Below are positions 26,821-30,249 of a stretch of 55,680 bases of DNA, piece after piece (the stretch's first letter is position 1; each line of letters opens with the position of its first letter). Under the pieces are notes generated by a model. That model was not told the DNA's origin and did no database searches. It worked only from the letters and a program-made list of their open reading frames with translations. The stretch is taken from NCBI GenBank assembly GCA_043767805.1, contig JAYUGC010000140.1, positions 1 through 55,680 of the forward strand. Reading direction: 5' to 3'. The translations under genes were made by a program, and so were the position numbers. The stretch comes from Pseudomonadota bacterium (GTDB lineage: Bacteria; Bdellovibrionota; FAC87; UBA2466).

Positions 26821-29800
26821 ATGCGGGTTTGGGTCTCATTGTGCTTAATGTTGGGGTTTGCCCTGTCGGGCAGAGGCGAGCGCGCTCCAGCGGAGCATGG
26901 GACAGCTCCCTCCGGCCGGCCCGAGGCTGGCCCGACCTTCTCGCCCACCCTCACAGATAGCGAGAGAGCCTGGGAAAGACCGGTCAGTGTGGACCAGGAC
27001 ATGTACGAGCGCAGCTATCTTCACTTTAATTATTTGAATGCCAATCCCGTTCCCGGGCTTTCGCCAAGTGCCACCTTGGCGGCACTGGAGTTTCAGAGCC
27101 GCTTATTGGGCATGGGGGTGGACGCGAAATTGGCCGGTTCTCTAGGTGAGAACTTCGAAGGCGCGCTCCGGGATCGCTCTAAGATAAATAGCGGGGAACG
27201 ACTTCAGGAACAGCTTGAAGCCCTGGTTTCTGTCGGCAGCACTCTGTTGGCTCCCAAGTTCAATTTGAAAGATCTCAAAACTTTCGGACGAGAGTTCGGC
27301 CAATTGACCGACGCGGGCGAAAAACAAGTCGCCCTAAAAGTTTTTGCCGAGGTGATGGGGTTTTCCTCGGGTCGCTTGGACGGCATTCCCATGACGGCTG
27401 CGGACACGGAGATGCTAAAGAGCGTGCTCGAACGAGCCGCTAAAAATCCCGCGGTGCAAAAAGGCTTGGACCCCGCCTTTAAGAAGATCATGGGTGTGGG
27501 ACAGACGGAACGCCTCTTGATGGTTCGCAGCCGAACCGACTATGCGCCCTATGTCGAGAAATGGGCCAACTTATATGCGCCTAATTTTAAAGACCCCACA
27601 CTAAAAAAGGCCGTGGCCGGAGCGCGCAACAGCGTTTCTCCTCAGAAACTGAAAGAAATCAATGCGGCGACTGATGCTTTGATAGAAACTTTTCGCCGTC
27701 AGACGGCACACCTCGAAGCAGAAGCTGTCCGCCAAGCGAAGGAAAAGTTGAGAAGAGACATTCACGATGCTTTTTCGGAAGCGCGCTCGGGATCTCAGGT
27801 GTTCTCACTCCTGGCGGGACAGATCGATCCCCAAGCAGGAAAAGCCTTCACGGTGGTTAGCCGGTCAGCGGCCGACATCGCGGAAATCCTGACGCTCGCC
27901 AAGGCCGGAGATATCACGGACATCAAAGCCGCGTTCGACATCACCAGCATTCTCACCGGTCTACTCTCGAATATTTTGGGAGGCCCGAGTCCCGACGCTA
28001 TGATTCTCGAGCAGTTAGTTGAGTTGCGCAAAGAAGTCAGGTCCTTGCACCAAGACATGTTGAAAGAGTTTAGCGGGGTTCATCTCCATCTCTACGCCTT
28101 GGAGCGGCACCTCAATAACAAGTTTTCCGATTTGGACCAGATCATTCGCTCCACCAATTCGGCTCTTGCGACAGTCGAGGGAAAACTCGATTTGCATCAT
28201 GCCGAGGTTAAAAGAGCGTTTGGCGACGAGCGAGCGGGAGAGCTCGACATCTTGATGCGGGAGTGTCCGAATCGGTCGGCGCAAATTCCGATGGATGCCG
28301 CTTACTACGCCAGTTGTTTGGACAAGCTGATGGCTTGCGCCGTTACCAAATCGAGAGATTCGATTTCGACGGGAGGGAAACTTATTTTCGACGGAAAAAC
28401 TGCGAACCAGCCTGGCGTTCTGGAAGAATCCGACTCTGTCTTGGGGTACGATAGCACTAACTGGGATCGTCTCAACTTCCTCACGGGCGCGGCGGCGCAT
28501 TTCGGTAAAACCCTTACTACAAAAGCGCTTCCCAATCCTTCTTTGTGGGCGATGTGCGCAAGCGGCTATTTGCAAATGGCCTCTCAGTCGCCAAAACATT
28601 ACCGCCTTTACGATCCTGACCTGAGCCATCTAAAGGAGCTTCAAGCGGCGGGGGACGATTTGGAGCAAGGTCTTTCGGCCATCACGACTGGCGCCGGAGG
28701 GAAAGCCAACGCCTTTCTCTTGAAGGAGTTGCTCGGCCAATACCACGCTTCCGTGAACGAGCTGGAAACCCATGTAAATACCGCACGCGTGCAATATCAG
28801 CACACAAACCTCGCCGACTACGATTTGCGCTTGGATGCCCGGCAGAAACCGTTAAGGCCAATTCCTTTCGACATGGAGGAAGGAAAGCCCGCCATCAAGC
28901 CTTGCGAAGGATCTTGGGCGGCGAACTCTGGTTTGCCCTCGCTCGTGGGGGGAAATGTAGCCGACACCTTGGGCGTATTTATTCCAAACGCTGTCCGCGT
29001 AGGCGACGATATTTCTTCCAATGGGGGCCCCACTCAGCTCAAATTTTGCTACGACATCACCGAGTTCGAATTTGACGAACGGCCGTTTGAGACTCCCGGG
29101 ATCCCGGGAGGTTCTTATCAACCTTACGCAAAGTCCTATCAGCTGACGGTTCGAGCCACCTTTCAGGGCAATCCGGTGTTTGCGCGCGCCATTTCAGGAC
29201 CCATCGATGTACCAACATTTGATAAGGCCCGATACGGTCCTACGGGTTTTCTTGGCCAGATTTCGATTGAGCACTTGAAAGCAAACTTGCGCAACGAATG
29301 GACGAAGGACGGCGGCTTTCTCAGTCGCTTGATCAAGGAGTCGGAGGACTCGCACTTCTCTAAAGAGTATGCCTTTAAGGGCAGTGACGATAAGGCGTCT
29401 CCCATTCCTCACGGACTCACTTTCCGTTTAGGTCCCGAAAGAGAGATCATGAGAAACTGGAGGCTCGATTTAGTGGGGCCGAGCATCGATGCCTCCGTTG
29501 CAGGGTACCAAACCTGGGTTAATGCCGCTAAGAACGTGCACGATAAGTTCGAGAGCGGCCGTATCGCCGTTGAGACTCAAATCCAGAAAGAGATAAATGA
29601 CGGCACAAGCAAAGAGGTGAAAAGAATATCGGGAGCGCGGGCCCTGCTCGCTTCCTATTTACAGCTGGGTCTGCCCATGGCGGTGAGAGAGAACGAGAAA
29701 GAATTATCCTCAGCGCTTAATAATTTGCCGTCGGGCCAAACCATACAAACCCAAGCCGGACTCAAACCCTTTATTTGGAACGAGGTCGACCGCCTCGTCT

Positions 29801-30249
29801 TCGACGCCAATAACCCGACTTATCCGAAGCCACCGCCGGGGGGTTTTGTACGCCCCAAGGCGCCCATCGATGGGTTTCTGGACGGAATCTTTAAAGAGTT
29901 TCTCGCCGAGAATTTCCAATGGGCAAATCGACCGGCTACGCCGCCCAAGGAGGCCCTCACGCGCGATACGAAAGGAGTGGCTCCAGGAGATCCGGCCGCG
30001 CCCGAGCTCACGAACGAAGCCTATGCTGCTTTCTATAAACCCGGCTCGGGCGAGCTGGTGACTCACTTACACTCTAGAGCGACGGAGCTCGAAAACGCTC
30101 TGAACCAAGTGATCGCCGAAGAACCCTCAAAGCTCTATGAGCACCGCCAACATCCGATTGTCCGGGACTGGCGCAGTGAACTACTCACAGCCAAGCTGGC
30201 CTTGCAGAGTGGTAAGCCCTACAAATACAAAGCCAAACCAAAGCCGTAG
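26821..30249 (+). CDS. Large (about 1140 aa) secreted hypothetical protein with a hydrophobic segment plus coiled coil; candidate toxin or effector
   Basis: ATG 26821 gives the signal peptide MRVWVSLCLMLGFALSG (the ORF-track start at 26668 overlaps the CDF gene). It contains AAFDITSILTGLLSNILGGPSPDAMILEQLVELRKEVRSLHQDM followed by heptads. Confidence 0.8.
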   Translation: MRVWVSLCLMLGFALSGRGERAPAEHGTAPSGRPEAGPTFSPTLTDSERAWERPVSVDQDMYERSYLHFNYLNANPVPGLSPSATLAALEFQSRLLGMGVDAKLAGSLGENFEGALRDRSKINSGERLQEQLEALVSVGSTLLAPKFNLKDLKTFGREFGQLTDAGEKQVALKVFAEVMGFSSGRLDGIPMTAADTEMLKSVLERAAKNPAVQKGLDPAFKKIMGVGQTERLLMVRSRTDYAPYVEKWANLYAPNFKDPTLKKAVAGARNSVSPQKLKEINAATDALIETFRRQTAHLEAEAVRQAKEKLRRDIHDAFSEARSGSQVFSLLAGQIDPQAGKAFTVVSRSAADIAEILTLAKAGDITDIKAAFDITSILTGLLSNILGGPSPDAMILEQLVELRKEVRSLHQDMLKEFSGVHLHLYALERHLNNKFSDLDQIIRSTNSALATVEGKLDLHHAEVKRAFGDERAGELDILMRECPNRSAQIPMDAAYYASCLDKLMACAVTKSRDSISTGGKLIFDGKTANQPGVLEESDSVLGYDSTNWDRLNFLTGAAAHFGKTLTTKALPNPSLWAMCASGYLQMASQSPKHYRLYDPDLSHLKELQAAGDDLEQGLSAITTGAGGKANAFLLKELLGQYHASVNELETHVNTARVQYQHTNLADYDLRLDARQKPLRPIPFDMEEGKPAIKPCEGSWAANSGLPSLVGGNVADTLGVFIPNAVRVGDDISSNGGPTQLKFCYDITEFEFDERPFETPGIPGGSYQPYAKSYQLTVRATFQGNPVFARAISGPIDVPTFDKARYGPTGFLGQISIEHLKANLRNEWTKDGGFLSRLIKESEDSHFSKEYAFKGSDDKASPIPHGLTFRLGPEREIMRNWRLDLVGPSIDASVAGYQTWVNAAKNVHDKFESGRIAVETQIQKEINDGTSKEVKRISGARALLASYLQLGLPMAVRENEKELSSALNNLPSGQTIQTQAGLKPFIWNEVDRLVFDANNPTYPKPPPGGFVRPKAPIDGFLDGIFKEFLAENFQWANRPATPPKEALTRDTKGVAPGDPAAPELTNEAYAAFYKPGSGELVTHLHSRATELENALNQVIAEEPSKLYEHRQHPIVRDWRSELLTAKLALQSGKPYKYKAKPKP

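Follow-up and report, generated by a model that had tools for sequence, protein, structure and literature searches.

P0001 of a Bdellovibrionota bacterium, a divergent member of an undescribed family of exported proteins with a possible membrane-directed role

Introduction

What does an exported protein of more than a thousand residues do among housekeeping genes, and does it stand alone? The window (the whole stretch of 55,680 nucleotides that was analysed) carries the gene of this protein, P0001, next to a 2-oxoacid dehydrogenase operon, a cation-efflux gene and the ATP synthase. A preliminary description took the product for an orphan of a novel family, with a core laid out like that of alpha-helical pore-forming toxins such as Vip3 and Cry domain I. 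The analysis corrects this picture of the window in two respects, namely that the gene, far from being an orphan, belongs to a family and that the analogy with Vip3 and Cry has no sequence or fold support, and leaves membrane attack as a tentative reading to be weighed against three others.

Architecture of P0001

An uninterrupted frame on the forward strand runs from the ATG at 26821 to the stop codon at 30247-30249 and codes for 1142 residues, in agreement with the earlier estimate of about 1140. The gene, single-copy in its genome and with a GC content 3-4 points lower than its neighbours, is built as follows:

26821..30249, forward strand: gene of the exported protein P0001, stop codon included (orthologue at 38% identity without stops; 195 family representatives)
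26821..26880, forward strand: signal-peptide-like N-terminus, residues 1-20 (direct sequence reading; 8 aligned relatives with N-terminal hydrophobic segments)
26992..27639, forward strand: variable N-terminal helical region, residues 58-273 (AF2 helices)
27640..27825, forward strand: long charged helix H1, residues 274-335 (AF2 model)
27772..27984, forward strand: charge-poor three-helix module, residues 318-388 (superposition on three-helix bundles, charge in the family)
27985..27996, forward strand: PSPD turn, residues 389-392 (family consensus GPSPEQ)
27991..28263, forward strand: amphipathic stalk helix of about 90 residues, residues 391-481 (AF2 helix, length about 135 angstrom)
28264..28860, forward strand: helical body domain, residues 482-680 (pLDDT mostly >90; conservation)
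28861..29220, forward strand: beta-sheet-containing domain, residues 681-800, with C695 and C743 (AF2 strands)
29221..30246, forward strand: C-terminal helical region, residues 801-1142 (AF2; family occupancy)

Of the features that had been read from the letters, the hydrophobic stretch, the PSPD turn and the cysteine-containing region followed by a mixed alpha/beta C-terminal half are borne out, and the signal peptide is probable. Read by eye, the N-terminus (MRVWVSLCLMLGFALSG) resembles a Sec signal, with no lipobox seen in it; signal-like N-termini are also visible in 8/8 and 30/30 printed family sequences, and 87 of the 124 family sequences that start with M have a hydrophobic N-terminal 10-mer in a crude hydropathy test. 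Residues 58-273 show the lowest conservation in the family (36% identity between P0001 and its orthologue), and H1 has 27.5% charged residues in the family.

The hydrophobic stretch AAFDITSILTGLLSNILGG (residues 370-388, nt 27928-27984) lies in the last of the module's three helices, which AF2 packs together as a bundle. This last helix is marginally hydrophobic and contains Gly, Ser and Asn; the stretch falls within the most hydrophobic 19-residue window of P0001, whose Kyte-Doolittle value of 1.33 is below the classical transmembrane mark of 1.6, and in the family the best 19-residue value has a median of 1.64 and reaches at least 1.6 in 58% of 73 members. Charged residues make up 5-15% of the module against 22-30% elsewhere in the family, and in P0001 three of them sit in the hydrophobic helix and nine in the segment 340-386. 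Residues 307-387 superpose on generic three-helix bundles (Z 7-9.3).

At the turn, P389 is invariant in 8/8 sequences and present in 79% of 75; shortly after it L396 is invariant in 8/8 family sequences, and I395, L396, L402, L409, M413, F417, L424 and F435 are each retained by 75-88% of 75 sequences. P0001 thus carries the block of hydrophobic helix, Gly-Pro turn and long amphipathic helix by which the family is recognised. The long heptad run described earlier stands as an amphipathic helix (residues 391-481) but not as a pure 3.5 heptad, its hydrophobic pattern being a single stripe with a period of 3.60 residues (7+11 = 18-residue repeats). Family conservation peaks at residues 381-420 (75 sequences), and the stalk is the region most conserved between P0001 and its orthologue (55% identity, no gaps), with DMLKEFSGVH in P0001 in place of the family's EMHxRFDRVD and several charged positions changed. 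The stalk has low pLDDT in the full AF2 model and 74-83 in the half model; low confidence in the monomer together with high conservation suggests a missing partner or an oligomer. The hydrophobic module and the long helix are the signature of the family and its most conserved part and, since the module is also charge-poor, a membrane-interacting and probably oligomeric role is plausible for them. As modelled, a charge-poor module between charged helices would fit membrane insertion and, equally, a buried core or a self-anchor.

Behind the stalk, P0001 has cysteines at 482, 499, 506, 579, 695 and 743, the first four in the body, and the conserved cysteines of the family lie within the C-terminal half; disulfides are likely within the alpha/beta body. 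The body also holds the conserved W576, Y583, P591, G611 and Y641. The AF2 model of the next domain has short strands (684-694) and three long ones (740-756, 765-781, 784-798) with helical parts on either side, and residues 801-1142 pack back onto the body, structural alignments spanning 470..1131. Two insertions in this last region (845-887 and 1000-1061) are modelled with low confidence, and its tail is rich in Lys and Pro.

Relatives and distribution

A six-frame genome search finds a full-length orthologue in a congener (38% identity, E 6e-229 over residues 5-1139), and an exhaustive HMMER search returns 195 cluster representatives at E<=1e-3, 35 of them at E<=1e-10, so that the orphan status is withdrawn. 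P0001 is significantly similar to the family over most of its length (E 1.2e-172 for the family profile against its gene), and a typical member has 141 close relatives. Word-index homology searches with P0001 and with the family alignment returned only P0001 and P0002, a sensitivity limit, because the genome and HMMER searches did find relatives; a related-locus search with P0001 as query gave none.

The family occurs in 40 of 201 sampled Bdellovibrionota genomes (13/32 in the family-level clade f1), with up to four or more copies per genome, in Caldilineaceae and in one Pirellulales MAG (HVX09927.1). All named members are labelled "hypothetical" (R3C14_48560 and U0175_34350 are examples from Caldilineaceae MAGs). 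They share with P0001 the length, the signal-like N-terminus, alignment over nearly the whole chain, the motif block TGN..GA..SLF..GPSPEQ..IL..LR..V..LR.EM..F and the conserved W576, Y583, P591, G611, Y641 and W827. P0001 differs from most of them in its identity of only 17-29% and in a less hydrophobic helix, and it lacks both the Ig-like domains appended in other members and their C-terminal [FY]LP[LV]xxR motif. The domains appended at the C-terminus of relatives are FG-GAP, Big_9, TIG, Laminin_G_3 and Big_5, and also PKD and CarboxypepD_reg. Of 250 family proteins, 78 have the motif at the extreme C-terminus, preceded by a linker rich in Pro. Many family members belong to Caldilineaceae, and it is these that end in it; the motif resembles a signal for sorting or anchoring and would fit a cell-bound surface protein. 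Counted in support of export of the whole chain are the signal-like N-termini, the extracellular type of the appended domains and the conserved cysteines of the C-terminal half.

No description of the family was found in the accessible parts of the literature on pore-forming proteins of Bdellovibrio and Bdellovibrionota, on cephalotoxin-like proteins and on C-terminal sorting in Chloroflexi, nor, in the parts on cephalotoxin-like proteins, anything on mechanism. The earlier view of a novel family holds, as that of an exported family without description: it is an undescribed exported family of unknown fold, for which the role of a membrane toxin is one candidate reading.

As reported earlier, no immunity gene adjoins P0001, and none, nor any secretion or partner gene, is encoded in the window. 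When the 223 ORFs of 28 loci were clustered, no cluster outside the family reached beyond three loci, and the loci of P0001 and its orthologue are not syntenic. In some relatives, from two lineages, the gene of an ankyrin lipoprotein is coupled upstream, and others have N-terminal Ank fusions; this lipoprotein could be a chaperone or an immunity partner, and as a query it has no match in P0001's own genome. A mobile-element origin of the gene was considered and rejected: tblastn gave no phage or plasmid relatives, and two family patterns found none in the viral contigs searched.

Comparison with known proteins and folds

No Pfam family matches P0001 at E<=1, and the Pfam, NCBIfam and PDB-sequence searches with P0001 and the family give no match. 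Among 30 members, coiled-coil families of Pfam and NCBIfam recur below threshold (Baculo_PEP_C in 28, DUF1664 in 24, Sec10_N in 24, ApoO in 21, NPV_P10 in 16); all are under their gathering scores and are read as compositional. A PDB sequence match to MIC60 (E 0.16) is not significant, and the same is true of design constructs, VP35 and HA2 in the comparison of the family profile with the PDB (E >= 0.0099).

The proposed check by an AlphaFold monomer and Foldseek yielded a model, but no solved fold, toxin or non-toxin, above helical noise. Foldseek finds nothing in the PDB at E<=1e-3 with the full and half AF2 models, and the best VIA matches (Z 10.7 and 9.3), to designed or generic helical repeats and three-helix bundles, were set aside because they lie under the noise mark for helical proteins (Z below about 13); the three-helix bundles include NuoK/Mrp-type membrane subunits, also within this noise. 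In BFVD, podophage internal virion and tape-measure proteins are generic long-helical matches (E >= 1.7e-3, prob <= 0.41) and were rejected. The only significant structural matches found are two BFVD entries that align over the whole length and are similar in size to P0001: A0A3G4ZLL3 (uncharacterised, Terrestrivirus sp., 968 aa; Foldseek E 8.7e-9, prob 1.00) and A0A481YRC7 ('SF-assemblin/beta giardin', Marseillevirus LCMAC101, 1192 aa; E 4.0e-8, prob 1.00), with TM-scores of only 0.19-0.21 and 10-11% identity. Both are predicted models of uncharacterised proteins from metagenomic virus bins, and the likeness, one of predicted structure, carries no functional information.

Kinship with Vip3 or Cry is unsupported, since neither a sequence-family match nor a solved fold above helical noise is found. 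The N-terminal Pfam family of Vip3 is absent from P0001 at E<=1 and from 36 relatives at E<=0.01, and is not among the 25 most frequent of the 87 weak families in 30 members; the matches that Foldseek and VIA listed for the full and half models include no solved Vip3 structure. For Cry toxins, no Endotoxin_N match occurs in P0001 or relatives, Cry8Ea1 stands at Foldseek rank 38 (E 0.32, prob 0.06), and Cry5B (Z 7.3 over 79 residues, rmsd 4.1) is inside the helical-bundle noise. In a language-model atlas, two members score 0.75-0.84 with Endotoxin_N and cephalotoxin-like helical clusters (0.75-0.79 for Endotoxin_N), below the reliability mark of 0.9. The pore state of alpha-latrotoxin (Z 6.8 over 173 residues) and colicin Ia (Z 7.4, rmsd 35.8) are likewise within helical noise, and ClyA/Hbl/Nhe/YaxAB-type toxins have no Pfam match and are absent among the structural rows returned. 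By sequence and model, then, P0001 is not detectably related to Vip3, Cry, ClyA-type or colicin-type pore formers.

P0001 resembles alpha pore formers (Cry domain I, Vip3, colicin, alpha-latrotoxin) solely in overall plan: long, charged amphipathic helices flank a hydrophobic helical element poor in charge, and beta-containing putative binding domains come after the helical part. It differs from them in having one clearly hydrophobic helix instead of a hairpin, and in size and domain order. With class I viral fusion subunits of the HA2 type the family shares the succession of a hydrophobic segment rich in Gly and small residues, a long helix and a body and, in Caldilineaceae members, an anchor-like C-terminal motif. 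Many HA2 rows of the family profile fall on exactly the long helix (best E 0.054, non-significant); unlike HA2, the family has a conserved Pro turn between hydrophobic helix and stalk, and there is no fold match.

Possible roles

The reading that we put forward, as a tentative one, is that P0001 is a Sec-exported, divergent member of a large family of extracytoplasmic proteins of about 1000-1200 residues and would attack membranes as an effector, either secreted or dependent on contact and in a broad sense toxin-like, with an oligomeric stalk and a target-binding body. The long helix would serve as the oligomerisation stalk, the sheltered hydrophobic module would be the membrane-interacting element, exposed upon contact, and the body and appended domains would bind the target. 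Counted in its support are the conserved charge-poor module with its stalk, the lack of a conserved catalytic-type residue, the accessory behaviour of the family (patchy occurrence, several copies in some genomes, no synteny between the two orthologues, a P0001 gene of lower GC than its neighbours), the weak atlas scores, and the ankyrin lipoproteins and Ank fusions of some relatives. Counted against it are the modest hydropathy of the P0001 helix with its three charges, the buried core that would also explain the AF2 bundle, the lack of a match to a known pore-forming toxin and of an immunity, secretion or partner gene in the window, and the anchor-like C-terminus of Caldilineaceae members; Caldilineaceae, moreover, are not known to be predators.

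Rather unlikely, and the best placed of the alternatives, is a stalked adhesin or scaffold attached to the cell surface or envelope, in which module and stalk would anchor and oligomerise on the producer without membrane damage, and the variable N-terminal region, the body and the appended Ig-like domains would bind external surfaces (prey, polysaccharide or substratum). Adhesion-type domains and the [FY]LP[LV]xxR motif in relatives speak for it, as do a conserved core with variable ends, a pattern of many adhesins, and a multi-copy, patchy family with no immunity gene; profile rows on the stalk include HA2, a short tail fibre, sigma-1 and a trimeric autotransporter fragment, all non-significant (E 0.05-3.6). 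P0001 itself, however, is without the C-terminal motif and carries no appended binding domain, the sequence and fold searches detect no known adhesin fold or anchor, and a charge-poor three-helix module in mid-chain is not known to serve for anchoring.

It is doubtful that P0001 is a secreted enzyme, acting for instance on a polysaccharide or envelope polymer, with the active site in the alpha/beta body and the N-terminal helices in a regulatory or targeting role. The body is predicted at pLDDT >90, many R, E, D, N, W and Y residues are invariant across 30 sequences of the Caldilineaceae-type subfamily (P0022 positions 464-602), secreted hydrolases often carry PKD and CarboxypepD_reg domains like those appended in relatives, and one locus (L017) has a glycosyl-hydrolase-like neighbour. 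On the other side, the positions kept in >=80% of 75 diverse members are only of the F, L, M, P, W, Y and G types, with no acid, base or nucleophile among them, P0001 lacks most of the invariant polar residues of that subfamily, and no enzyme family or fold is matched. Least probable is a structural role in the producer's own periplasm or across its envelope, with the helix of about 135 angstrom as periplasm spacer and no function outside the cell. Pointing that way are a Sec signal that is accompanied by neither a recognisable signal for secretion through the outer membrane nor secretion genes next to it, the long single helix, weak LptE-like Foldseek matches of the beta domain (E about 0.1, prob 0.5-0.9) and the housekeeping neighbours. 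The patchy spread even in the family-level clade, the fast divergence between congeners, the shifting genomic position and the extracellular adhesion domains of relatives do not suit a housekeeping envelope part.

A wider form of the membrane-attack reading, quite unlikely as it stands, is that of a 'harpoon' class of exported proteins, not recognised before, in at least three bacterial phyla and possibly in giant-virus bins. A homo-oligomeric stalk helix would bear the sheltered, marginally hydrophobic module at its end and release it for insertion into a foreign membrane, the body and swappable Ig-like domains would select the target, an ankyrin lipoprotein would in some lineages be keeper or immunity partner, and in the present genome, from a predatory lineage, the prey envelope would be breached; its design would parallel class I fusion proteins or alpha-pore formers with an unrelated fold. 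If membrane attack is true, predatory Bdellovibrionota, filamentous Caldilineaceae and Planctomycetota would share a structurally new family of proteins that act on membranes, and the family would offer a way into the question of how certain predators or competitors get through foreign envelopes. Regardless of role, it comprises at least 195 sequence clusters, for which Pfam and NCBIfam have no model and no fold is recognised. With a motif block that is sharply conserved, ankyrin partners that recur and a C-terminal motif that is a candidate for a new sorting signal, this is enough for a family definition and a target for structure determination.

Upstream region

The sigma-54 promoter that had been assigned to the gene corresponds to one element:

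26775..26790, forward strand: sigma-54-like -24/-12 site AGGAACGCCTATTGCA, 31 nt before the ATG

This site is of the GG-N10-GC form and matches 14 of the 16 positions of the sigma-54 consensus (TGGCAC-N5-TTGCW), with two mismatches. Its presence is confirmed, but the count of such sites is not above chance (15 of this quality in the window against 18.2 +/- 4.6 expected, with 15 reached in 78 of 100 shuffles), and no correctly spaced GG/GC site is seen by eye upstream of the orthologue (L009, 7926-8000). A sigma-70-like site was looked for in the 128-bp gap ahead of the gene and not seen. The genome encodes sigma-54 (rpoN; PF04552, E 4.8e-65), and AGGAACGCCTATTGCA is a plausible, though weak, candidate for a sigma-54 promoter of the P0001 gene.

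A widespread family of apparently exported proteins

P0001, the product of the gene at 26821-30249 (+), is a real, apparently exported, fast-evolving accessory protein of a large family that appears to be undescribed and has no recognisable fold; the conserved core of this family is a charge-poor helical module followed by a long amphipathic helix. The frame is open from the ATG at 26821 to the stop codon at 30247-30249 and encodes 1142 aa. The longest ORF over the gene begins at a GTG at 26668 and runs into the upstream gene, and the ATG at 26821 matches the N-terminus of the orthologue in alignment.

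P0001 had been taken for an orphan, and a word-index homology search does return the query as its sole match; this label falls with the detection of a congener's orthologue, full-length, stop-free and 38% identical across residues 5-1139 (E 6e-229), and of 195 proteins at E<=1e-3 in an exhaustive HMMER search of 1.84 billion representatives (35 at E<=1e-10; 4, the query among them, at E<=1e-30), which are mostly 900-1200 aa long. When 41 related genomes are searched in six frames, 12 of them give matches, the window's own genome included. The family profile has hits in 40 of the 201 genomes sampled from the phylum (30 of 119 genera); a single genome can have as many as four scored matches, whereas P0001 is alone in the window's genome. 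For P0022, a typical member, 141 relatives are found at E<=1e-5 among 8000 candidates scored. The named ones are nearly all "hypothetical protein", with an apparently automatic methyltransferase-subunit name on P0208 (a JGI row), and the nine rows that give an organism all give Caldilineaceae. One further member occurs in a Pirellulales MAG. Searches of phage and plasmid collections, and of viral contigs with two family patterns, detect no relative, and no description of the family was found in the family libraries or in the literature listings searched.

Architecture and conserved core

The anatomy outlined in the preliminary description is real, and its elements (signal-like N-terminus, hydrophobic stretch, PSPD turn, cysteine region and alpha/beta C-terminal half) can all be located. 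The N-terminus, MRVWVSLCLMLGFALSG, resembles by eye a Sec signal without a lipobox, and the following elements are found in the rest of the chain:

Residues 370-388, hydrophobic stretch
Residues 389-392, PSPD turn
Residues 391-481, single unbroken helix (AF2 prediction)
Residues 482-743, region containing all six cysteines
Last 660 residues, body of confidently predicted helices plus, at 740-798, a sheet of three strands (AF2)

The supposed long heptad run stands as a long amphipathic helix and not as a pure heptad repeat, the hydrophobic stripe averaged over the family having a period of 3.60 residues (alternating 3,4,3,4,4 spacing, or 18-residue repeats) rather than 3.5. The most hydrophobic 19-residue window of P0001 (368-386) reaches a Kyte-Doolittle value of only 1.33, at the low-hydropathy end of the family. 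For this helix the best-19 hydropathy across the family has a median of 1.64, and 58% of 73 members attain at least 1.6.

In an alignment of 75 family sequences, occupancy is 0.8-0.98 across residues 260-680, 900-980 and 1080-1140, and the whole architecture is therefore common to the family. Conservation is maximal at 381-420, a segment that takes in the end of the hydrophobic helix, a Gly-Pro turn and the initial third of the long helix. The long helix is also the best-kept part between P0001 and its orthologue (55% identity, gap-free, versus 36% in the N-region and 35% in the beta domain). Across the family, charged residues make up 5-15% of the module, three helices at 318-386, versus 22-30% of the flanking helices and body. 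Retained in 80% or more of the 75 members are L396, M413, F417, L424, F435, L554, P573, W576, Y583, P591, G611, Y641 and W827; none of them is a typical catalytic residue. An unrecognised enzyme is an improbable reading of P0001.

Structure models and comparison with known folds

The full-length AF2 model of P0001 has a mean pLDDT of 73 and a pTM of 0.60, with pLDDT >90 over the greater part of 490-840, 890-1000 and 1070-1130, whereas 387-460 is poorly predicted (45-66). When residues 58-490 are modelled separately, the mean pLDDT is 77 and the long helix rises to 74-83. Because high conservation and low monomer confidence coincide in the long helix, it may constitute an oligomer interface. 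Searched against PDB sequences, the family profile gives many non-significant rows on this helix, among them the trimeric viral and fibre helices of HA2 (best E 0.054), VP35, the T4 short tail fibre and sigma-1, which could hint, and no more, at a stalk-like character.

Kinship with alpha-helical pore-forming toxins of the Vip3 and Cry domain I type failed in the sequence tests and draws no support from the fold tests. P0001 has zero matches at E<=1 in Pfam and NCBIfam, thirty typical members have only sub-threshold coiled-coil families in Pfam, and eight members have nothing meaningful in NCBIfam. Foldseek retrieves nothing from the PDB at E<=1e-3 with either the full-length or the 58-490 model, and the toxin rows are marginal: Cry8Ea1 at E 0.32 and, under the noise of Z ~13 stated by VIA-align for helical proteins (48,161 chains), Cry5B (Z 7.3 across 79 residues), colicin Ia (Z 7.4, rmsd 35.8) and the pore state of alpha-latrotoxin (Z 6.8 across 173 residues). 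Likewise below this noise, the body reaches a best Z of 10.7, with the helices from ~470 and 1080-1130 stacked in the manner of a designed or HEAT-type repeat, and residues 307-387 a best Z of 9.3, to generic three-helix bundles. In a protein language-model atlas, two family members score under the 0.9 mark throughout, the recurring leads being a cluster that is probably the family's own (0.88-0.89), cephalotoxin-like helical domains (0.77-0.84) and a cluster of the Cry8Ea1 family (0.75-0.79). For the full model, significant structural matches are found only with A0A3G4ZLL3 and A0A481YRC7 in BFVD (E 8.7e-9 and 4.0e-8; probability 1.00), both uncharacterised predicted models from giant-virus metagenome bins, aligned over the whole length with a TM of ~0.2; they may reflect either a wider range of the family or bacterial contigs mis-binned as viral.

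C-terminal additions and possible roles

Relatives carry appended FG-GAP, Big_9, TIG, Laminin_G_3, RCC1, Big_5, PKD and CarboxypepD_reg domains, and the C-terminus therefore lies outside the cytoplasm, which speaks against a stop-transfer anchor in the mid-chain hydrophobic helix. The charge-poor module would interact with a membrane. The family is best regarded as solving a familiar task, that of a secreted membrane-active or surface-binding protein, with a new structure. Tentatively, and as the likeliest of the roles considered, P0001 could have a toxin-like role in attacking foreign membranes.

A self-attached adhesin or scaffold is a slightly less likely role for P0001, and it is the one to which a motif at the extreme C-terminus of Caldilineaceae-type members points. 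This motif, [FY]LP[LV][VL]xR, follows a Pro-rich linker and any appended Ig-like domain, occurs in 78 of 250 family proteins and is absent from P0001; judged from sequence, it resembles a signal for sorting or anchoring that has not been described. Its bearers include P0022, P0151-P0189 and the genes at the following loci of relatives:

L013:588-3380
L014:861-3899
L015:5330-8788
L016:7221-10541

That P0001 is a periplasmic structural protein is the least probable role. The analysis yields a solid family definition and, in the attack on foreign membranes, a testable hypothesis.

Genomic context

The P0001 gene has a GC content of 0.535-0.545, 3-4 points below its neighbours, and is surrounded by the following features, with the 2-oxoacid dehydrogenase and ATP synthase operons lying beyond its flanking genes:

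19834-25732 (-), complete 2-oxoacid dehydrogenase cluster (E1 alpha, E1 beta, E2, E3), lipoyl synthase directly upstream; ordinary housekeeping context
128 bp upstream of the P0001 gene, same strand, cation-efflux gene
26775-26790, sigma-54-like site AGGAACGCCTATTGCA with a GG-N10-GC core
30250-30990 (-), convergent radical-SAM ORF, its stop abutting that of P0001 with zero spacer

No terminator-like hairpin is seen between the two stops (30247-30252). The orthologue is flanked by a Fur-family gene and a chaperonin gene, and the two loci share neither synteny nor a conserved partner. Moreover, clustering of 223 ORFs from 28 loci gives no non-family cluster in more than three loci.

In two Bdellovibrionota lineages, a small ankyrin-repeat lipoprotein gene (Pfam Ank above cut-off; L012:6004-6417 (-) and L011:19024-19566 (-)) shares 4 nt with the start of the family gene. 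Two members have N-terminal Ank matches close to the threshold (P0008, residues 51-137; P0016, residues 47-105), and an Ank protein lies downstream of the family gene in one metagenome locus (L037:12315-14126). The Ank protein may serve the family as partner, chaperone or immunity protein; the lipoprotein query finds nothing in the window's genome.

In two metagenome loci (L030:1993-5077; L034:3699-6720), family genes are preceded, in divergent orientation, by genes for a planctomycete-type ECF sigma factor (PF07638) and a Ser/Thr kinase with TPR repeats; L034 has three family genes in a row. Two islands, L010 (G026:C4:288500-308400) and L011 (G028:C1:256000-275900), contain 3-4 family paralogues among several Pfam-less ORFs, with a small PEGA-domain lipoprotein gene directly 3' of one family copy; genome G028 also has a broken copy, with one TGA and one TAA within the match.

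The sigma-54 promoter assigned to P0001 is plausible but unproven. The site is well placed for the gene and sigma-54 is encoded in the window's genome, but sites of its match quality are no more frequent in the window than expected by chance (15 observed versus 18.2 +/- 4.6) and no correctly spaced GG/GC site is seen by eye upstream of the orthologue. Four of the 15 sites, AGGAACGCCTATTGCA among them, immediately precede an ORF on the same strand, and some may therefore be real. No sigma-70-like site is found in the 128-bp gap upstream of P0001. Lastly, the window contains two better sigma-54-like sites, each with one mismatch:

14712-14727 (-), TGGAACGCTGCTTGCA, 119 nt upstream of the ORF at 12812-14593 (-)
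6467-6482 (+), TGGCATAGCCCTTGCT, 112 nt upstream of the ORF at 6594-7955 (+)
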